DNA of 64,000 bases from an uncultured Verrucomicrobiae bacterium (GTDB taxonomy: Bacteria > Verrucomicrobiota > Verrucomicrobiia > Limisphaerales > UBA11358), in contig CAWEAA010000003.1 in the NCBI GenBank assembly GCA_963806905.1, forward strand, positions 785-64,784. Direction: 5' to 3'. Positions 14,303 to 62,922 of this stretch are shown here, piece by piece. The notes beneath the pieces were generated by a model. The model did no database searches. It worked only from the letters and a program-made list of their open reading frames with translations, and was not told where the DNA came from. A program made the position numbers and the translations under genes. The stretch's first letter is position 1. Each line of letters starts with the position of its first letter.

Positions 14303-14317
14303 AAATGTTTGGCCGCG

Positions 14318-14376
14318 GATTTCGCGGATGACACGGATTAAAAACATTTTCCTGAATCCGCGCAATCCGCGAAATC
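14318..14376. repeat. heptad-repeat hairpin in the gcvT-gcvH spacer
   Basis: Left arm GATTTCGCGGATgacaCGGAT and right arm ATCCGcgcaATCCGCGAAATC give a 12-bp outer stem and a 5-bp inner stem. Arms are built from CGCGGAT/CACGGAT 7-mers. Confidence 0.7.
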
Positions 14377-14382
14377 AGCGGT

Positions 14383-20283: not shown

Positions 20284-20314
20284 CTTAACCGCGGATTACA
20301 CGGATAACGCGGAT
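20284..20314. repeat. solo copy of the heptad-hairpin left arm, downstream flank of the GxxExxY gene
   Basis: cTTAACCGCGGATTACACgGATaacgcGGAT compared with aTTAACCGCGGATTACACaGATttcacGGAT at 20725-20755; the copies are in direct orientation. Confidence 0.7.
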
Positions 20315-20315
20315 A

Positions 20316-20716
20316 TTATTTCAAACCCGCATCATCAATATTCTTTCGCAGTTTTTCGTTTACCACACGTTTCCATTCAAGTTTGGCATTCTTAAAATTG
20401 AGGAGCAGTGCCACCTCCAAGCCGGTGATATTCAGATAACCGAGCATTTGAGCAATGTGGGTTTCGCTGAAGTCAGTGACGACATTTGGATCGGCAATGA
20501 CTTTGCCATCCACTATGAGATCCGGGATGAGCTTGCCAATGAAATGACCACGATAATGCACCGGATATTCAGCTGTTGCTCAACGGAGCAACTGCGTGCC
20601 TGCAACTCGATGACGAGTGCATTTTCATATAGCTTTTCGTCCAAACCGGGTTTGAGTTCATTTAGAACCGCCATGGCAGCGCCGATGATGCTTTCAGTGT
20701 TTTCTTTGTGGAGCAT
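20316..20716 (-). pseudogene. GxxExxY (PD-(D/E)XK_3 family) protein split by a 1-nt frameshift
   Basis: 20513-20716 encodes IIGAAMAVLNELKPGLDEKLYENALVIELQ (GxxExxY motif). 20316-20561 encodes HYRGHFIGKLIPDLIVDGKVI...ALLLNFKNAKLEWKRVVN. One extra C/G at 20561-20566 restores LNIPVHYRG. Confidence 0.75.
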
Positions 20717-20725
20717 GAAAAAAGA

Positions 20726-20796
20726 TTAACCGCGGATTACACAGATTTCACGGATAAATTCATCCCATCCGTGTCATCCGCGTAATCCGCGGTTAA
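20726..20796. repeat. heptad-repeat hairpin directly downstream of gap
   Basis: TTAACCGCGGATTAC (20726-20740) pairs perfectly with GTAATCCGCGGTTAA (20782-20796). The inner arms continue with CACGGAT/ATCCGTG units. Confidence 0.8.
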
Positions 20797-38956: not shown

Positions 38957-40759
38957 TCACGGCGATTTGGCCGGTTGCCAATCCAAAACTTTTAACTGCA
39001 CCGAGCGATTGCCATTGAATTCGTTCATTTGTGGTGCAAACGCCAGGTCAAACTTCCCGACGGGCAACGATTCGTTGCCGCCGTTCCACCAAACCGCTTC
39101 CAACACCGCGCCGCCCGCAGCGCCGTAGCCGCCAGGCGGCGAAGGCGTGTCCGTCACCCACATTTTCACGTGCTGCTTGTCCGCGCCGATGCGCTGGAGG
39201 GGACGCTGATGGGCCAGGTTGCGCGCGCAAAATTGCACCGATGGATTTCCCTGGCCCGTCGGTTTCAACCGCGCCAGCTTCCCGAGCGATTCCAAAGTGA
39301 TTTCATCCAGCCCGACCTCCGCGTCGAGACGCAACGACGGTTGCAGGTCATCCGGCTTCAATGCGCGTTGCGCAAGTTCATTCAAGCGTTGCCGCAGCAA
39401 ATCAATCTTGTCCGGCTGAATGCTCAAACCCGCCGCCATTGCGTGTCCGCCGTGCCGCACGAGCAAATCATCGCATTCCCCCAACGCCGCGGCCAGATCG
39501 AAACCGGCGATGCTGCGGCCCGAGCCGCGCCACTCCCCGCCTTCGCCGCCAATGATAATGGTTGGGCGGTAAAATTCCTGCAACACGCGCGACGCCACGA
39601 TGCCAACCACGCCGATGTGCCAGAGCAACTGGCCTTCGACGATGACGAAATCAGTTTGCGGGTTGAATTTCGCCCGCACCGCGCCGATGACTTCCTCGAC
39701 CATGCCGCGTTCGATTTTTTGACGTTCGCGATTGCGCGCGTCGAGATTTTGCGCCAGCGGCATGGCTTCAGCCAAATCGCGTGCGAGCAAAAGTTCCAAT
39801 GATTCTTCGGCGGTTTCGAGGCGGCCGGCGGCGTTCAGGCGCGGCGCCAGCTGGTAGCCGACTTCATACGTGCCGATGGGTGCGGATGATTCAGCGACTT
39901 TCTTCAATGCGACCAGGCCGGGCCTCTGCGTTTTGTCCAATCGTTCCAGACCGGCAGAAACGAGAATCCGATTTTCACCGGTGAGCGGCACGAGATCGGC
40001 AATCGTGCCCAGCGCGACCAGGTCGAGCAGCGGCTTCAAATCGAATTCCAACGCCCCGGGCAGGCCGGTTTGGCGTCCGCGTTTGATCAAGGCGTGGGCC
40101 AGTTTGAAAGCCAGGCCAGCCGAGCACAGTTCGGTGGATGCAGTTCGGAGTTCGGAGTTCGGAGTCCGGAGTTGGACCTGCGGATTGACAAGCGCAACCG
40201 CTTCGGGCGCCGGATGTGAAACCTGATGATGGTCGAGCACGATGACGTCCACGCCGCGTTCGCGCAACGAGCGGATAGTTTCAACGGCCGTCGAACCACA
40301 GTCCACGGCCAGCAGCAACCCGGCCGGACCGGTCGAGCCGGAGCCTTGCGGTTGCGGGAATTTCCTGAGGCAATTTTCAACGGCGTCCTGGCTGAGGCCG
40401 TAGCCTTCGTCCATGCGATGGGGCAGATAAAAATCCACCTGCCAGCCGAGCGAACGCAAGACTTCAAGGAGCAACGCGGTGGAGGTGACGCCGTCCACAT
40501 CGTAATCGCCGAAAATGAGGAGCGGTTCACCGCGTTCGCGCGCGAGCAGGAGCCGGTCAACGGCGGCGGCCATGTCCGGCAACCGAAACGGGTCGGCGAG
40601 ATTTTTCAGCCGCGGCTGGAGAAAATTCGAGATGGCGGACGGTTCGCTTAAACCGCGATTGAGCAGGCATTGGGCGAGCAGCGGCGAAATCTTGAGTTGT
40701 GACGCCAATTGGCCGGCAAGCAACGGTTGCGGGGGCGCGAGCGACCAGCGAAATTTCAT
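38957..40759 (-). CDS. recJ: single-stranded-DNA-specific exonuclease RecJ
   Basis: DHH motifs (IFGDYDVDGVTS, AVDCGS, VLDHH) and DHHA1 (GGHAMAAG). Confidence 0.9.
   Translation of the reverse strand: MKFRWSLAPPQPLLAGQLASQLKISPLLAQCLLNRGLSEPSAISNFLQPRLKNLADPFRLPDMAAAVDRLLLARERGEPLLIFGDYDVDGVTSTALLLEVLRSLGWQVDFYLPHRMDEGYGLSQDAVENCLRKFPQPQGSGSTGPAGLLLAVDCGSTAVETIRSLRERGVDVIVLDHHQVSHPAPEAVALVNPQVQLRTPNSELRTASTELCSAGLAFKLAHALIKRGRQTGLPGALEFDLKPLLDLVALGTIADLVPLTGENRILVSAGLERLDKTQRPGLVALKKVAESSAPIGTYEVGYQLAPRLNAAGRLETAEESLELLLARDLAEAMPLAQNLDARNRERQKIERGMVEEVIGAVRAKFNPQTDFVIVEGQLLWHIGVVGIVASRVLQEFYRPTIIIGGEGGEWRGSGRSIAGFDLAAALGECDDLLVRHGGHAMAAGLSIQPDKIDLLRQRLNELAQRALKPDDLQPSLRLDAEVGLDEITLESLGKLARLKPTGQGNPSVQFCARNLAHQRPLQRIGADKQHVKMWVTDTPSPPGGYGAAGGAVLEAVWWNGGNESLPVGKFDLAFAPQMNEFNGNRSVQLKVLDWQPAKSP
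40128..40176. repeat. tandem AGTTCGG heptamers inside recJ
   Basis: agttcgg tggatgc agttcgg agttcgg agttcgg agtccgg agttgga. Translated on the gene strand as QLRTPNSELRTAS. Confidence 0.8.
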
Positions 40760-46527: not shown

Positions 46528-46548
46528 ATTCGGAGTTCGGAGTTCGGA
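46528..46548. repeat. tandem AGTTCGG-type heptamers inside ispG
   Basis: aattcgg agttcgg agttcgg. Same unit as in recJ; translated as RTPNSEF. Confidence 0.7.
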
Positions 46549-48916: not shown

Positions 48917-48974
48917 GTTAAAGCGGAGTAACTATAGCAGTGAAATAATTTACTGCAATCTTTGCGCGAGGCCG

Positions 48975-50121
48975 TCAAATCGCCGCAGCTTCCCGCCGCG
49001 CCCAGGCGTCCGCCGCCAAAATTTGCTCCAGTGTGGGATGGGAAACGACCTTGTGCGCGTCCATCATGCGCCGGACGGTTCCGGTGATTTGCGGGAAATT
49101 GATTTTTTGATTCACGAACGCTTCGACCGCCACTTCGTTCGCGGCGTTCAATACCGCCGGCAGCGTGCCGCCCGCCTCCCCTGCCCGGCGCGCCAAGCTC
49201 AGCGCCGGAAACCGTTCCTCGTCCGGCTCTTCAAAGGTGAGGCTGCCAAGTTTGGCGAAATCGGTCTGCACACGTTCGCTCGGCGCGCGGTCGGGATACG
49301 TGAGCGCGTATTGAATCGGCAGGCACATGTCCGGCGTGGAAAGCTGGGCAAGCATCGCCCCATCCACAAACTCGACCAGCGAGTGGACAATGCTTTGCGG
49401 ATGCACCAGCACGCCGACGCGTTCGATGCCAATGTCGAACAGCCAGCGCGCTTCAATCATTTCCAGGCCCTTGTTGAACAACGTCGCCGAATCAATGGTG
49501 ATTTTCCGGCCCATGACCCACGACGGATGTTTAAGTGCGTGCTCGACCGTGATTTCGGCAAATTTTTCCCTGGGCCACTTCCTGGCGTCGCGAAACGGCC
49601 CGCCGAGGCGGTGAGCCAGAGTTTGCGGACGGAACCGGGAGGTTTCCCGTCGAGACATTGAAAAATCGCCGAATGCTCGCTGTCCACCGCCAGCACGCGC
49701 ACGCCATGTTTACGCGCCTCGCGCATCACGATTTCACCGGCCATGACGAGGATTTCCTTCGAGGCGATGGCAATGTCCTTGCCCGCGCGAATGGCGGCCA
49801 GCGCCGGTTTCAGTCCCGCTGTGCCAACGATGGCGATGAGCACAATGTCCGCCGCCGGCAGCGTGGCGAGTTTGATCAAACCGTCTTCGCCGGAATAAAC
49901 CCGCATCGTCGCCCCCCCAATTTTTCCAGCTCACGGGCCTTCTCCGGGTCGCTGATGGAAATCGCTTCGGGCCGGTGTTTGTGCGCCTGTTTGAGCAGCA
50001 ATTCGGCATTGTTGCCGGCGGCCAGCCCGAGCAGCCGGATGCGGTCCGGCAAATCCTCAGCCACCTTGACGGTGCTGGTGCCAATGGAGCCGGTCGAACC
50101 GAGTAAAACAACGTTTTTCAT
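48975..50121 (-). pseudogene. dxr: 1-deoxy-D-xylulose 5-phosphate reductoisomerase, split by two 1-nt frameshifts
   Basis: Three fragments: 49876-50121 (LLGSTGSIGTST), 49457-49906 (LAVDSEHSAIFQCL) and 48975-49658 (HPSWVMGRKITIDSATLFNKGLE...). The junctions lie at the C7 run 49912-49918 and at 49598-49608. Confidence 0.85.
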
Positions 50122-50143
50122 TTACGATTTACGATATACGATT
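50121..50143. repeat. left arm of the long stem enclosing the four-helix-bundle gene
   Basis: tttacgatttacgatatacgatt (TACGAT 7-mers). Pairs with 50538-50560 at 21 of 23 positions. The two A/C mismatches become G-U pairs on the minus-strand RNA. Confidence 0.8.
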
Positions 50144-50503
50144 GACGCGACCTGATGACGTTCGCGCGGTTTTCGCCGAGGTAACGATAATCGCCAGAAT
50201 TTCATCTGCTTCCTTCATCAAATTTCCCAGCCGTGCTGGTTTGACGAAGTTGTTGTCCACAAGCAATTCCATCCAGAACAAGGATTCATCGCACTCTTCT
50301 TCAACAATCCGGAGTTTGTTGATGAAATCTGAGTTTGATTTGGCCCGGCAGACGGCACGGTAATTCGCGCCAACAGAGGTTCCGCTGCGGAGCAGTTGTT
50401 TCCCCAACGTCTGGGCAATCCAGTTGCTTGGAAGCGCTGAGCAAAGTTTGACAACCCGGTTGGCATAAGCCTTCGTCCGTTGTTTCATTTCATCGCGCGT
50501 CAT
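50129..50503 (-). CDS. four-helix-bundle protein (23S rRNA intervening-sequence protein family)
   Basis: 124 aa (ANRVVKLCSALP...LGKQLLRSGTSVGANYRAVCRAKSNSDFINKLRIVEEECDESLFWMELL). AT-richer than the flanking dxr and cdsA. Confidence 0.8.
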   Translation of the reverse strand: MTRDEMKQRTKAYANRVVKLCSALPSNWIAQTLGKQLLRSGTSVGANYRAVCRAKSNSDFINKLRIVEEECDESLFWMELLVDNNFVKPARLGNLMKEADEILAIIVTSAKTARTSSGRVNRIS

Positions 50504-50537
50504 AAAATCTAAGAGTCAAATCTTCAGCCATCTCGTA

Positions 50538-50560
50538 AATCGTATATCGCAAATCGCAAA
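50538..50560. repeat. right arm of the long stem enclosing the four-helix-bundle gene
   Basis: aatcgtatatcgcaaatcgcaaa. Ends 1 nt before the cdsA stop codon. Confidence 0.8.
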
Positions 50561-50561
50561 T

Positions 50562-51482
50562 TCAAGGATGTGTTAAAATATGCCTCAAATACAAATACAT
50601 GATGGGCGCGTTGAATAAAAGACTATCGAGCAGGTCGAGAATGCCGCCGATGCCGGGAATCAACCTGCCCGAGTCTTTCACGCCTGCTTCCCGTTTGAAC
50701 AGTGATTCAATCAAATCGCCGATGACGGCAGCAATGCTCAGGACGATTCCGAGAATCACGGCGTGGAGGAGATTCATTCCGGTCATTTTCGCGCTGAAGA
50801 AATGCGCGAACGCCACACTCGCCGCCGTCGAAACCAGAATCGCACCGCCGAAACCTTCCCACGTTTTGCCGGGGCTGATGCGCGGGACCATTTTATTCCG
50901 GCCGATGAGCGAGCCGACGGCATACGCGCCGGTGTCACTGAATTTCGTCACGAGAATGAAATAAAGCACATAATATTTTCCGCCGTCGCCGATGCCGGGG
51001 AAGAAATTGATTTTCTGGATGAAGTTCAGCAACCACGGCACATACATCAGGCCGAACAGCGTCGCGGAAATGGCCGCAATGCCGGCCGTGTTGCTGCGTG
51101 AAACAAATTGCCGCACGCACAAACCGAGCACGAACAGGATGATGAAACCGGTTTCAAAATCGTTCACGCGCGCCGGGGAACCAGACGTGCCGAGATGCCC
51201 GGTCAGGTTCAAAAAAGTTCCCAGCATCAATAACAGCCCGCCGAACAGCCCGCACCATTTGAAGCAGACCAGGCTGCGCTTTTCGGCCAGACCGTAAAAC
51301 TCCGCCAGGCCGGTCATGCCCAGAACAACCATGATGAGAATGAACACGCCCTTGGAAATCAGGGGGCTGGTGGAAAACAAGGCCGCGATGATGACCGTCC
51401 AGAGAACCACCGAAGTGATCAATCGGCGGAGAAATACTTTTGACTTTGAAGGCGTTTGGGCCGCCACAGCCACGTCTGACAT
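50562..51482 (-). CDS. cdsA: phosphatidate cytidylyltransferase
   Basis: Multi-TM protein with the C-terminal CTP-transferase signature SLFKREAGVKDSGRLIPGIGGILDLLDS. ATG at 51482. Confidence 0.85.
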   Translation of the reverse strand: MSDVAVAAQTPSKSKVFLRRLITSVVLWTVIIAALFSTSPLISKGVFILIMVVLGMTGLAEFYGLAEKRSLVCFKWCGLFGGLLLMLGTFLNLTGHLGTSGSPARVNDFETGFIILFVLGLCVRQFVSRSNTAGIAAISATLFGLMYVPWLLNFIQKINFFPGIGDGGKYYVLYFILVTKFSDTGAYAVGSLIGRNKMVPRISPGKTWEGFGGAILVSTAASVAFAHFFSAKMTGMNLLHAVILGIVLSIAAVIGDLIESLFKREAGVKDSGRLIPGIGGILDLLDSLLFNAPIMYLYLRHILTHP

Positions 51483-51560
51483 GCAGGTGAAGGATAGCAA
51501 GCGTACGGGGTATTGCCAATTGCCAATTGCGGATCCGCCTTCCAAGGCGGAGGGAACATT

Positions 51561-51597
51561 GGAAATAAAAAGAGGCCGGGTCACTACTCCGGCCTCT
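51561..51597 (-). terminator. rho-independent terminator (minus strand)
   Basis: On the minus strand: AGAGGCCGG-agtagtgac-CCGGCCTCT followed by TTTTATTTCC. 9-bp GC-rich stem and a 9-nt loop. Confidence 0.6.
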
Positions 51598-56033: not shown

Positions 56034-56109
56034 GGGGTCGTAGCTCAGTTGGTAGAGCGGCTGGTTCGCAATCAGCAGGTCAGGGGTTCGAATCCCCTCG
56101 GCTCCACCA
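56034..56109 (+). tRNA. tRNA-Ala (anticodon CGC)
   Basis: 76-nt cloverleaf. Acceptor GGGGTCG/CGGCTCC with the G3:U70 alanine identity pair. D arm GCTC-AGTTGGTA-GAGC. Anticodon stem GCTGG/TCAGC with loop TTCGCAA. T arm AGGGG-TTCGAAT-CCCCT. CCA is encoded. Confidence 0.95.
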
Positions 56110-56111
56110 GT

Positions 56112-56165
56112 CTTCGCTCGGAGCGCAGCGCAGAGCGAAGACTGCCGCGCCGTAGCGTAGCGAAG
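56112..56165. repeat. hairpin-containing direct repeat, copy 1 (after tRNA-Ala)
   Basis: CTTCGCTCGGAGC-gcagcgca-GAGCGAAGACTG plus about 20 nt of weaker similarity. Repeated at 56489-56542. Confidence 0.7.
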
Positions 56166-56228
56166 GCGGGCCATGGAGAAAGGGCTGCAAATTAGACGCT
56201 CCGAGCTACGACTCGGCAAGCCAGTAAA

Positions 56229-56483
56229 ATGAATTTCTTTTATGTTTACATACTTTATATACTGCAAAGCAATGCCAAGGCCGGCGGTTTCTATGTCGGA
56301 TTCACTGAGGATTTGCAGGCACGCTTGAAGAAGCATAACGCTGGCGAAGTTCCGCACACGGCGAAGTCTCGTCCGTGGCGAATCAAAACCGCAATTGCCT
56401 TTCCGGAGCGCGAACGAGCCATTGAATTTGAACGCTATTTGAAATCGTCATCCGGCCGCGCTTTCGCAAAGAAACGACTTTGA
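56229..56483 (+). CDS. small GIY-YIG nuclease family protein
   Basis: 84 aa: FYVYILY...GGFYVGFTEDLQARLKKHN...RPWRIKTAIAFPERERAIEFERYLKS. Confidence 0.8.
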   Translation: MNFFYVYILYILQSNAKAGGFYVGFTEDLQARLKKHNAGEVPHTAKSRPWRIKTAIAFPERERAIEFERYLKSSSGRAFAKKRL

Positions 56484-56488
56484 TTAGC

Positions 56489-56542
56489 CTTCGCTCGGAG
56501 CAACGCGGAGAGCGAAGACTGTTGCGCCCAAGCAAAGCGAAT
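56489..56542. repeat. hairpin-containing direct repeat, copy 2
   Basis: CTTCGCTCGGAGC-aacgcgga-GAGCGAAGACTG. The stems are identical to copy 1; the loop differs. Confidence 0.7.
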
Positions 56543-61062: not shown

Positions 61063-61154
61063 GGCGCGACAGCGTCTTGGACTGCGGCAGCCCTCTGCCG
61101 CTTTCAAATATTTTGCGCGCCGGAAAAGCGCCAGAGGGCTGGCGCACTCCAAAA
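61063..61154. repeat. REP-like two-hairpin element, copy B (intact)
   Basis: ggcgcgacagcgtcttggactGCGGCAGccctCTGCCGCttt...aaaaGCGCCAGagggCTGGCGCactccaaaa. Confidence 0.65.
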
Positions 61155-61182: not shown

Positions 61183-62154
61183 TCATGGCAATCTCCGAAA
61201 TAACGTCTGTCCCAAAACGATTTCGATGAGCAAAATCGCCAGCCCGCAGCTCACGAACCAGGGGAACAACTCCTTGAATTGCGTGTATTTGGTGATGGTC
61301 GCCTCGGTTTTTTCGAGCTTGTCAATTTCCGCGTAGATGGCCTTGAATTTTTCGGAATTGTCCGCGCGATAATATTTGCCGCCGGTCATTTGCGAAATTT
61401 GCTGCAACGTGTCCTCGTCCGGCAGGTAGCCGGGTGGCAACCCCATCTGCTGGACGATTTCGCGGTTGCCGAGGCCGATGGTGTAAATTTTTACGCCCAA
61501 CGCCTGCGCCGCTTCTGTCGCCGTGATCGGATCAATTTTGCCGGAATTATTCCCACCGTCCGTCATCAGGACGATGATTCTGCTTTTCGATTTCAGCTCG
61601 CGCAACCGGTTCAATGCCGTGGTGATTCCGTCGCCAATCGCGGTCGCGTCCGAATTGATCGAGCCGATGCCGAGCCGGTCAACGGTTTCGAGCAAATAAT
61701 CGTGGTCGAGCGTCATGGGCGAGGCGATGAAAGCCTGCGCGGCAAAAACCACCAGGCCGATGCGGTCATTGGGCCGCCCTTCAATAAACTCCTGCAGGAC
61801 GGGCTTGGCCATGTTAATCCGGCTGATTTGACGGCCATTGATGACATAATCCCCGGTGTTCATGCTGCCCGACAAATCGAGCGCGCAGACGATGTCGATG
61901 CCGCTGGCCTTGACCATTGTATGGCTTTTCATCCAACGCGGTTGCGTCAGCGCGACGATGAACAACACCAGCACCAGCCAGCGCAGCGCCGCCAGAAACG
62001 CGCCCGCCCGGGAACGCCGGGCACGGGTCAAACCCACCAACAATCGCACCGAGGAATACAAAAACGCCGGCGGCTGGCCGCGCCGGCCTTTGAGCCAGGC
62101 CAACAACGGCGGCAACAGAAGCAGCAGAAATAAATATGGATGGCCAAAAGTCAT
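61183..62154 (-). CDS. BatA-like VWA domain membrane protein
   Basis: N-terminal TM helices and the VWA MIDAS motif (DIVCALDLSGSM...VLMTDGGNN). Confidence 0.85.
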   Translation of the reverse strand: MTFGHPYLFLLLLLPPLLAWLKGRRGQPPAFLYSSVRLLVGLTRARRSRAGAFLAALRWLVLVLFIVALTQPRWMKSHTMVKASGIDIVCALDLSGSMNTGDYVINGRQISRINMAKPVLQEFIEGRPNDRIGLVVFAAQAFIASPMTLDHDYLLETVDRLGIGSINSDATAIGDGITTALNRLRELKSKSRIIVLMTDGGNNSGKIDPITATEAAQALGVKIYTIGLGNREIVQQMGLPPGYLPDEDTLQQISQMTGGKYYRADNSEKFKAIYAEIDKLEKTEATITKYTQFKELFPWFVSCGLAILLIEIVLGQTLFRRLP

Positions 62155-62723
62155 GCGGACACCATCTCGCTGTGGACTGCGGACTGTGGACTGTGGACTT
62201 CTTTCGGTTCGGTTTCTTCAACCAGCCGCAGCGCGGAAGAATGCAATCCTCGCAACTCCGGTTCACCCGGTTCGTATTTGGCGAACTTCACGAGGTCGCA
62301 GCTCCCCAGAAATTCACCGAGTTGTGCCTTCTGCTCTGCCGCCAGCAAATCCGTGTCCTGCAACTCACGTAAAAATTCCTCAGTCGTCCGCTCCGGCGCG
62401 CGAAAATCAAAACGCTCTTCGAGATAAAACCGGATCGTGTCTGAAACCAGAATACAGAACTGCTTCGGTTGTGAAATCAAGGCCAGCGCTTCGTCTAATT
62501 TTTGCTTCGCGCGAACGTTCGCCGGCACGGGGGGTTCAACCGGCATGTTTGCTTTTCGCTTTTGCCACCAACGCCAGACGAAAATGCCAGCGGCCACGAT
62601 GGCCAGTGCGGCCAGTGTCCACCAAACCCATTCCCAACCGCTCGGAATCGCGACCGGCGGCTTGATGTCGCGAATGTCATTCGCGCTCGCAGCGGCAGCT
62701 TGGGATGTTGCGTTTGAAATCAT
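62151..62723 (-). CDS. DUF4381-like membrane protein
   Basis: DIRDIKPPVAIPSGWEWVWWTLAALAIVAAGIFVWRWW pattern at the usual position between DUF58 and BatA. ATG at 62723. ATGA overlap with batA. Confidence 0.7.
   Translation of the reverse strand: MISNATSQAAAASANDIRDIKPPVAIPSGWEWVWWTLAALAIVAAGIFVWRWWQKRKANMPVEPPVPANVRAKQKLDEALALISQPKQFCILVSDTIRFYLEERFDFRAPERTTEEFLRELQDTDLLAAEQKAQLGEFLGSCDLVKFAKYEPGEPELRGLHSSALRLVEETEPKEVHSPQSAVHSEMVSA
62171..62198. repeat. tandem TG(T/C)GGAC heptamers at the DUF4381/BatA junction
   Basis: tgtggac tgcggac tgtggac tgtggac. Confidence 0.7.
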
Positions 62724-62740
62724 GTTCAAGTGTTACGCTC

Positions 62741-62892
62741 GCCCTCACCCCGGCCCTCTCCCCCAGGAGAGGTGGAATCATTCACCGTCTCACAAAATAA
62801 CCTGCGACTGGATTTACCGGACGACTTCCGGTACAAAGTAAACCGTACTGTTGCTGTTCCCTCTCCCCGGGGGAGAGGGTCAGGGTGAGGGC
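62741..62892. mobile_element. MITE-like GC-rich palindromic element, long form
   Basis: Terminal inverted repeats GCCCTCACCCcggCCCTCTCCCC (62741-62763) and GGGGAGAGGGtcaGGGTGAGGGC (62870-62892) match at 20 of 23 positions. They enclose about 105 nt with an inner TACCGG/CCGGTA hairpin. Confidence 0.6.
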
Positions 62893-62922
62893 GGCTGTTC
62901 ACCGCTGTTTCTTTCGCAAATT

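Follow-up and report, generated by a model that had tools for sequence, protein, structure and literature searches.

A stem-enclosed cassette resembling 23S rRNA intervening sequences at the cdsA-dxr junction of an uncultured Verrucomicrobiae bacterium

The spacer between cdsA and dxr, two co-oriented minus-strand genes in the 64,000-nt stretch of DNA analysed here (the window; positions 785 to 64,784 of contig CAWEAA010000003.1, assembly GCA_963806905.1, from an uncultured Verrucomicrobiae bacterium), is filled by a single element of 440 nt (50122..50561, minus strand), which holds one open reading frame (ORF) and displays complementary arms at both ends. Very probably, this element is a horizontally exchanged insertion cassette of the same type as the intervening sequences (IVSs) of ribosomal RNA genes. 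The complete explanation favoured here, in which the cassette is co-transcribed with its host operon, folded into a stem and processed by RNase III while its cargo gene is expressed by hitch-hiking, is given a probability of about 0.7.

The upstream host gene cdsA (CDP-diglyceride synthase; 50562..51584, minus strand; PF01148, 2.8e-54) ends with a TGA codon at 50562-50564, and the downstream gene dxr (48975..50121, minus strand), which is matched by PF02670, PF08436 and PF13288 on three pieces, starts with an ATG at 50119-50121. On the operon transcript the 5' arm (50531..50561, minus strand) begins right behind the cdsA stop codon with an array of the heptamers TTGCGAT, TTGCGAT, ATACGAT and TTACGAG. 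The 3' arm (50120..50150, minus strand) is an inverted heptamer array (ATCGTAT, ATCGTAA, ATCGTAA), the last bases of which are the A and the T of the dxr ATG. The cargo gene (50129..50503, minus strand) codes for a 124-residue four-helix-bundle protein that belongs to the 23S rRNA IVS protein family, and has its stop codon within the 3' arm. Tandem Repeats Finder detected both arrays with a period of 7 (50533-50561 with 4.1 copies and 50120-50147 with 4.0 copies; units ATTTACG x4.0 and TCGTAAA x4.1).

An initial interpretation of this DNA from its letters only, referred to below as the sequence-only reading, had already located the cdsA stop, the dxr start, the arms and the full extent of the spacer, and all of these coordinates hold on the minus strand. 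It had paired 50121-50143 with 50538-50560, where 21 of 23 positions are Watson-Crick pairs and the other two are G·U on the minus-strand RNA. It had also noted weaker pairing over about 7 nt further along; according to the repeat finder, the arms extend to 31 nt with 87% complementarity (50120-50150 and 50531-50561). Its description of an AT-richer spacer is borne out by a GC content of 46-50% in the cassette versus 55-63% in the flanks, and the fold of the minus-strand RNA, proposed by it as a check, was predicted for the 481-nt transcript. In both the minimum-free-energy and the centroid fold a 24-bp stem with two additional 3-bp extensions closes the cassette (z = -4.48, equalled by 0 of 100 shuffles), running from directly behind the cdsA UGA into the first two bases, A and U, of the dxr start codon. 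The arms reach a score of 21, with a maximum of 13 among 2000 shuffles, and a chance origin of arms and cassette was rejected. Folded on their own, they yield -40.4 kcal/mol in the sense and -28.9 kcal/mol in the antisense orientation. A promoter scan, which is a weak test for Verrucomicrobia, found no sigma-70-like promoter inside the cassette. There is no U-run behind the stem, where the sequence reads AAAUGAAAAACG, and an intrinsic terminator, i.e. a short GC-rich hairpin followed by a U-run, was rejected for the 3' arm, which lacks a terminator-like site. An Rfam search of the 64-kb window returned a tRNA-Ala as its sole match.

The same junction was compared among relatives by a CdsA scan of genome representatives, which gave 80 loci (designated by L-numbers) labelled mainly as metagenome-assembled genomes of Verrucomicrobiota/Limisphaerales, a few being assigned to other taxa; cdsA and dxr were located in each of them. 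Empty sites, which the sequence-only reading had suggested looking for, exist in 14 of the 80 loci. In these the dxr start overlaps the cdsA stop as ATGA or GTGA (CCATGAA, in two cases CCGTGAA), and removal of the cassette from the window likewise leaves the two genes abutting. The spacer measures only 5-19 nt in 13 further relatives. The four-helix-bundle cassette with TACGAT-type arms is found in 15 relatives at 81-97% amino acid identity, and at the identical junction 12 others carry a GxxExxY/PD-(D/E)XK cassette with a gene of 134 codons (PF13366, 1.3e-36) between CACAGAT-type arms (GCCACAGATGAACACAGATGAAACACAGAT and its complement). The nearest relative, L001, differs from the window by a clean 443-nt indel, corresponding to the cassette plus one copy of TGA, in flanks that are 96.5% and 95.7% identical; L001 reads CACCCGTGA followed by AGAACG, and the window reads CATCCTTGA, then the insert (ATTTGCG...CGTAAATGA) and then AAAACG.

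On the CdsA tree the junction states are patchy, and sister genomes differ from each other (window/L001, L029/L063, L076/L080). L001 and L003 are empty within a clade whose remaining members all possess the cassette or its solo hairpin, and they read CCGTGAAG with a GTG start, the other 12 empty sites reading ATGAAG or ATGAAA. These GTG-start sites are as expected if a filled site of the form CCG TGA [cassette] A TGA AG lost the stretch from one TGA copy to the other by deletion, and their state appears to reflect a precise secondary loss of the cassette. Shortened forms are present as well. Hairpins without an ORF, built of TACGAT/TATGAT heptamers around a loop of about 25 nt, occupy the junction in L006, L022, L047 and L051, and L015 has a solo CACAGAT-type hairpin. 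A decayed copy in L013 retains both arms, with the first six codons joined to the last few, and in L075, L032 and L050 only 3' remnants are left. In alignment A1 the 3' coding end of the four-helix-bundle gene matches the loops of the solo TACGAT hairpins, and these hairpins are therefore regarded as deletion derivatives of cassettes. Other lineages display junction hairpins with other repeat units, namely GCAGAAT, GTGTTGGA, CAAAGnn, CACGGAT and nested CACGAAT/CGCGAAT. The cassette is thus shown to be an insertion, which some close relatives carry, others lack and others have replaced, and which decays through internal deletion to ORF-less hairpins. The cdsA-dxr junction is an insertion hot spot. 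Two loci have other small ORFs there, of 109 residues in L037 (339-nt spacer) and of 124 residues, with a hydrophobic product, in L016 (390-nt spacer); for both, no arms were detected and no Pfam match was obtained.

These junction states also bear on the possibility that the hairpin is a device of the host, i.e. an mRNA stabiliser, an attenuator or a translational decoupler that sets the ratio of cdsA to dxr, with the ORF as a passenger. Such a role would be in line with the persistence of ORF-less hairpins of several repeat types at cdsA-dxr and dxr-rseP in many lineages, and with the fact that the stem sequesters the start region of dxr. However, 14 relatives are without any spacer, 13 more have one of just 5-19 nt, and sister genomes are found in different states. 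Moreover, the ORF is more constrained than cdsA itself, and the same architecture recurs in unrelated operons across phyla (accB-accC, fabD-fabG, hsdS-hsdR, pumps of the resistance-nodulation-division (RND) type and defence operons). A host device is therefore considered improbable.

The cargo protein scores 61.6 bits (cut-off 33.8; 9.8e-17) with PF05635, '23S rRNA-intervening sequence protein', and 85.5 bits (cut-off 24; 2.6e-24) with TIGR02436, 'four helix bundle protein', in agreement with the fold assigned to it by the sequence-only reading. It is further similar to a solved Bacteroides protein (PDB 2RLD, five chains; 1.7e-17 over residues 5-114), and a profile made from 12 family members also reaches 2GSC/XCC0516 at 0.0035. 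Across the 16 orthologous cassettes the four-helix-bundle gene has a median ratio of nonsynonymous to synonymous divergence (omega, Nei-Gojobori) of about 0.06, and cdsA one of 0.14. Such values show strong purifying selection on the cargo, stronger than the constraint on cdsA, and hence a functional protein rather than a decaying passenger. Synonymous divergence (dS) of cassette and cdsA is discordant in both directions, amounting to 0.034 versus 0.589 between L012 and L024, to 0.037 versus 0.387 between L030 and L042, and being saturated versus 0.286 between the window and L002. Accordingly, the cassette has a history separate from that of cdsA, by horizontal exchange or replacement, and the exchange among relatives is explained most simply by recombination through the conserved essential flanks. 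A PADLOC search gave no match for the four-helix-bundle and GxxExxY proteins, though several plasmid copies sit within defence operons.

Because PF05635 includes homologues of Avd from phage BPP-1 (PMC10053308), the cargo might in principle serve a diversity-generating retroelement as an Avd-like accessory subunit. Pfam identifies its neighbours as rseP, dxr, cdsA, a response regulator and a histidine kinase; none of them is a reverse transcriptase, and the window contains no direct repeat resembling a template repeat/variable repeat pair. Furthermore, the flanks of the same gene lack a reverse transcriptase at the junction in 15 other genomes. The chance that the cargo is such a subunit is regarded as negligible.

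Outside the relatives, a tblastn search of the PLSDB plasmids with the cargo protein retrieved 32 records, mostly cyanobacterial, and 16 loci were read. The flanks of the four-helix-bundle gene are complementary beyond all 40 shuffles in 14 of these 16 loci, in 13 with a period of 7, so that complementary flanks at other copies of the gene, a census proposed by the sequence-only reading, were indeed found. The plasmid loci belong to Cyanobacteriota, Chloroflexota, Spirochaetota, Bacteroidota and Bacillota. Their arms are composed of different heptamers, such as (TAATTCG)x4.7 in Dolichospermum (33 of 33 positions paired), (AAATTCA)x5 in Aulosira (35 of 35 paired), GGTCGGA in Nostoc punctiforme and GGAAAGY in Treponema; a Planktothrix plasmid, whose protein is 60% identical to that of the window, uses ATTTACG, the heptamer of the window. 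Typically, the plasmid cassettes are situated between two co-oriented operon genes, with the arms touching their stop and start codons, and the host pairs include drmD-pglX, DUF1156 and a Swt1 HEPN gene, helicase-methylase, hsdS-hsdR and an RND adaptor-permease pair. At a junction of DUF1156 with a Swt1-family HEPN gene, cassettes that are 71% identical are present in L085 (Gloeocapsa) and L086 (Chlorohelix, Chloroflexota) between ATTTTAG/ATTTTGG arms; the occurrence of this shared junction cassette in two phyla suggests that the whole defence operon was transferred together with it.

Some plasmid GxxExxY genes follow the same pattern. In Bacteroides finegoldii radA is followed by a GxxExxY gene with CACAGAG-type arms, and in Sphingomonas fabD and fabG enclose a GxxExxY gene. 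With XCC0516, a solved Xanthomonas protein, as the starting point, a homologue was located in X. arboricola between accB and accC, flanked by GGGAATC heptamers and their near-complement. The RNA of this junction is predicted to fold into four 6-bp helices separated by 1x1 mismatches, reaching from the accB stop to the accC start (z = -4.45). Inserts of this kind are gained and lost among close relatives, and at least seven bacterial phyla have them in operons.

Comparison with known elements identified the ORF-bearing IVSs of 23S rRNA as the closest counterpart of the cassette. Such elements are known from helix 45 of Coxiella burnetii and also from Leptospira, Brucella and Haemophilus. In general, IVSs reside in helices 9, 25 or 45 of 23S rRNA or in 16S rRNA, and are excised by RNase III without re-ligation. 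The IVS of C. burnetii has a length of 428-444 nt and a 28-bp stem formed by terminal inverted repeats, and its 5' region carries GACAGAT heptamers, two or three of them in tandem and a further one that is degenerate, ahead of the S23p/PF05635 ORF (PMC4990558). Recombinant RNase III of both Coxiella and E. coli excises it in vitro, and rapid amplification of cDNA ends mapped the 5' cut to the start of the first repeat (PMC4990558). The likeness to IVSs put forward in the sequence-only reading is matched feature by feature in this description (PMC4990558), namely in size (440 nt in the window), in stem length (24-31 bp in the window), in the heptamers beside the ORF (TTACGAT in the window, while the sister cassette of this junction has CACAGAT), in the PF05635/S23p cargo, in a GC content below that of the host, and in a sporadic distribution with horizontal transfer. 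IVSs are defined as elements 'found in 16S and 23S rRNA genes' (PMC4990558), and the location of the window cassette at an mRNA intercistronic junction between cdsA and dxr, instead of an rRNA helix, is the sole one of the defining features compared by sequence in which it departs from them. A second difference concerns the ORF, which in the window is under purifying selection, whereas that of Coxiella is decaying and apparently untranslated. Excision by RNase III has been shown for the Coxiella element and is extrapolated from there to the window.

Taken together, these data suggest the following course of events. The cassette was inserted exactly where the stop and start codons of the essential cdsA-dxr operon overlap (ATGA), and TGA was retained on either side. 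Presumably devoid of a promoter of its own, it would be co-transcribed with cdsA and dxr, and the 24-31-bp stem of inverted heptamers would fold in the RNA and juxtapose the cdsA stop with the dxr start, which restores the arrangement that preceded the insertion. RNase III could then cut the stem as in the homologous 23S rRNA IVS, thereby freeing the mRNA of the cassette, separating the cdsA and dxr messages and leaving dxr with a short, unstructured leader; by analogy, the chances for and against such processing in the window are judged about even. A second route to tolerance would be a ribosome that terminates at the base of the stem and re-initiates at the adjacent AUG of dxr, a contribution that is possible but rather doubtful. 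Folding and cutting of the stem would explain why an insert of 440 nt is tolerated at a translationally coupled essential junction and why cassettes fill operon junctions exactly. The insertion would thus be tolerated in an essential operon, the cargo being expressed by hitch-hiking, and among relatives the cassette could spread by homologous recombination through conserved flanks.

Pairing, rather than sequence, is the conserved property of the arms, since proteins that are 76-77% identical have unrelated yet complementary ones (GGTCGGA in N. punctiforme, TAATTCG in Dolichospermum and non-repetitive arms with 42 of 44 positions paired in Nostoc UHCC0870). Arm complementarity is conserved and arm sequence is free to change. 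Recognition of its own heptamers by the cargo, suggested by the ATTTACG unit common to the window and Planktothrix, was rejected as a general rule due to the same unrelated arms. Among the 16 orthologous cassettes, shifts in heptamer copy number and register make the alignment of the arms ambiguous, and the visible changes are mostly one-sided.

Several observations weigh against the mechanism outlined above. The G·U wobbles by which the sequence-only reading had argued for the minus-strand transcript are genuine in the window copy, but the argument is not general. On the sense strand of 45 junction stems the mismatches comprise 28 G·U, 22 A·C and 40 transversions, and selection on the RNA strand was dropped as a conclusion because G·U is not commoner than A·C. 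Three plasmid cassettes (L095, L096 and L099, the latter from Anabaena cylindrica) are antisense to both neighbours with well-paired heptamer arms, one of them between cas2 and cas1, and for these no cargo expression from the host transcript is possible. In Coxiella, IVS RNA undergoes rapid degradation once excised, and S23p is seemingly not made, which implies that release by RNase III is no guarantee of cargo expression. As regards insertion itself, TGA (or TGAA/ATGA) is found at both cassette ends, but both copies are needed anyway, as the cdsA stop and in the dxr start, and selection alone would give the same picture; TGA can therefore not be counted as a duplicated target site. The neighbouring ORFs provide the cassette with no associated transposase or integrase, and neither the window nor the 80 loci contain a second copy that is nearly identical. 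TACGAT-type arrays are confined to this site within the 64 kb, and the remaining four-helix-bundle genes of the 80 loci, with an identity of about 28%, have arms of another kind.

The wobble counts and the three antisense cassettes may be compatible with a role of the arms at the level of DNA, and they lend some weight to the view that the cassette is purely a foldback-like element, similar to MITEs (miniature inverted-repeat transposable elements), in which the heptamer arrays are terminal inverted repeats for the cargo or for a recombinase acting in trans, and the RNA stem is incidental. The resemblance to MITEs and foldback transposons comprises terminal inverted repeats, a short duplicated end sequence in the form of TGA on both sides, decay to short palindromic remnants and presence/absence polymorphism, which is precise between genomes about 96% identical. 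Mismatches of wobble type without strand bias fit as well, and the GxxExxY and GIY-YIG cargos come from nuclease superfamilies. In contrast to MITEs, the cassettes are nearly single-copy with diverged paralogues only, have no known cognate transposase and enclose a conserved gene that is not a transposase; the four-helix-bundle protein lacks a catalytic motif. Without a second TACGAT-type site in the window and with paralogues as distant as 28% identity, there is no sign of recent copy-and-paste, and arms that differ between closely related cargos show that arm sequence is not tied to the protein. Cargo orientation is the same as that of the host operon in 18 independent cases versus 3 antisense ones, and the homologous rRNA elements are demonstrably substrates of RNase III (PMC4990558). 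A purely DNA-level element is accordingly thought unlikely, and processing of the cassette at the RNA level remains the preferred interpretation.

Other repeat classes share single traits with the cassette. Repetitive extragenic palindromic elements (REPs) are imperfect palindromes of about 35 nt, which RAYT transposases have multiplied into hundreds of similar copies. Long stems that separate co-transcribed genes are a trait held in common with REPs, bacterial interspersed mosaic elements (BIMEs) and further intercistronic stem-loops by which operon mRNA is shaped, and the solo hairpins resemble such elements, but the arms of a cassette are repeat arrays that enclose a gene. An integron gene cassette, with a single 3' attC in an array beside intI/attI, was rejected in view of arms on both sides, a single cassette in a housekeeping operon and no integrase nearby. 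Like the short tandemly repeated repetitive (STRR) sequences of cyanobacteria and the GGGAATC arrays of Xanthomonas, the arms are 7-nt tandem arrays in transcribed intergenic regions, often as inverted pairs. The Xanthomonas arrays, with 70-75 convergent pairs per genome, were described as simple sequence repeats that form G-quadruplexes and whose function was unknown (Rehm et al. 2015, PMC4692102). Exactly this repeat forms the arms of the X. arboricola accB-accC cassette; the published arrays were not connected with four-helix-bundle genes or IVSs, whereas here they are interpreted as cassette arms or remnants.

The three strongest long-range inverted repeats of the window enclose the four-helix-bundle gene of the cdsA-dxr cassette, a GxxExxY gene and a GIY-YIG gene. 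A reverse census of inverted repeats with a score of at least 20 and a gap of 200-750 nt gave only 25 in 866 kb (the window plus the 80 loci), and 23 of the 25 enclose a gene of one of these three families. The GxxExxY/PD-(D/E)XK cassette of the window (20285..20796, minus strand), a member of the same class that lies after the gene gap, matches TIGR04256 at 2.4e-35 once the frameshift near 20561 is repaired. Its layout is an arm, an 11-nt loop, a complementary arm, a U-run, the ORF and a second copy of the complementary arm, with 9-nt repeats around a CGCGGAT/CACGGAT core. Of the three arms (20726-20796 plus 20285-20314), the 5' one is able to pair with either copy of the 3' arm, and just after gap a tight terminator-like hairpin is followed by UCUUUUUU; this arrangement suggests alternative structures or an insertion beside a pre-existing hairpin. 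An ORF-less hairpin at 14313..14381 consists of the same 9-nt repeats of CGCGGAT type, its arms measuring 27 nt and its loop 15 nt.

The frameshift about 20561 in the GxxExxY gene (20316-20765) has a parallel in dxr, which is read in three frames owing to two single-base deletions near 49910 and 49605. L081, a short-read assembly with 99.4% identity, has one additional base at each site and an open dxr frame, and one of the two deletions follows a run of seven G. These lesions probably represent homopolymer or long-read assembly errors and not pseudogenes.

The GIY-YIG cassette (56105..56541, plus strand) is related but built differently. Its gene of 84 codons (56229-56483; PF01541, 9.8e-13) directly follows the tRNA-Ala and has on each side a direct copy of a palindromic 56-nt unit, the two copies being 80% identical. 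The palindrome within the unit reads GTCTTCGCTC...GAGCGAAGAC, and the tRNA is tRNA-Ala(CGC), the region as a whole spanning 56034-56541. In L021 a GIY-YIG gene again abuts the 3' end of a tRNA (CTCCACCA), and eight relatives have GIY-YIG homologues upstream of cdsA in either orientation.

Repeat hairpins are found at the dxr-rseP junction, too. There, L042, L026 and L044 harbour a second four-helix-bundle gene, 28% identical to the first, between AATGACG heptamer arms, and L015 a solo AATGACG-type hairpin. Most relatives conserve a promoter-like motif before rseP (GATTGCGG, 17 nt and a TATAAT-like hexamer, followed by a small GC hairpin; 48917-48977 in the window), so that rseP probably has its own promoter. 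In many lineages, hairpins of the CGTCCT hexamer or the AATGACG heptamer are inserted between the dxr stop and this motif.

Tandem heptamers without an inverted partner are present in the window at three places, namely AGTTCGG x4.6 inside recJ (40142-40173), where they are translated as a SELRTPN-like stretch in repeated form, CTGTGGA x4.3 (62170-62199) at the 3' end of the ORF 62151-62729, and TTCGGAG x2.9 (46529-46548). Two GC-rich REP-like palindromes are unrelated to the heptamer hairpins, one at 61077-61152 (TTGGACTGCGGCAGCCCTCTGCCGCTTT and its complement) and one at 62740-62893 (CGCCCTCACCCCGGCCCTCTCCCCCAGG and its complement 98 nt apart); palindromes like these flank a HicB-like ORF in L079 (8785-9611).

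For 35 years IVSs have been seen as a curiosity of rRNA genes, the origin of which and the function of whose ORFs are obscure. A full-text literature search, which did not extend to family comments in databases and may miss informal prior knowledge, found no paper in which inverted heptamer arrays are tied to four-helix-bundle or GxxExxY genes outside rRNA, and no description of IVS-type elements in mRNAs. It is tentatively proposed, at somewhat less than even confidence, that the ORF-bearing IVSs are the rRNA-resident minority of a far larger, cross-phylum class of stem-enclosed cassettes, with four-helix-bundle, GxxExxY/PD-(D/E)XK and perhaps GIY-YIG cargos, which insert between co-transcribed genes, are made harmless by their stem and decay to heptamer hairpins. 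The stems of this putative class would consist of short tandem repeats in inverted order, for the most part heptamers, and the insertion sites would often be stop and start codons that overlap, in essential or defence operons. Harmlessness would be brought about by RNase III excision or by juxtaposition of stop and start, and STRR-like arrays and the Xanthomonas GGGAATC pairs would be remnants. If such a class exists, the origin of IVSs, the excess of intergenic heptamers and the high copy number of these small families would have one explanation.

In the window, an IVS-type element is found in an mRNA with an ORF clearly under selection, and in close relatives the site occurs empty, filled, replaced or decayed, which provides a natural series. 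Questions that become tractable are the cutting of operon mRNAs by RNase III, the survival of a coupled essential gene pair, the role of the protein and the movement of the cassette, for which culturable hosts are available with the Xanthomonas accB-accC junction and the Nostoc and Bacteroides loci. For annotators the finding is a warning that such spacers are mobile inserts and not native regulatory regions, and it offers an origin for the over-represented heptamer repeats of intergenic DNA.

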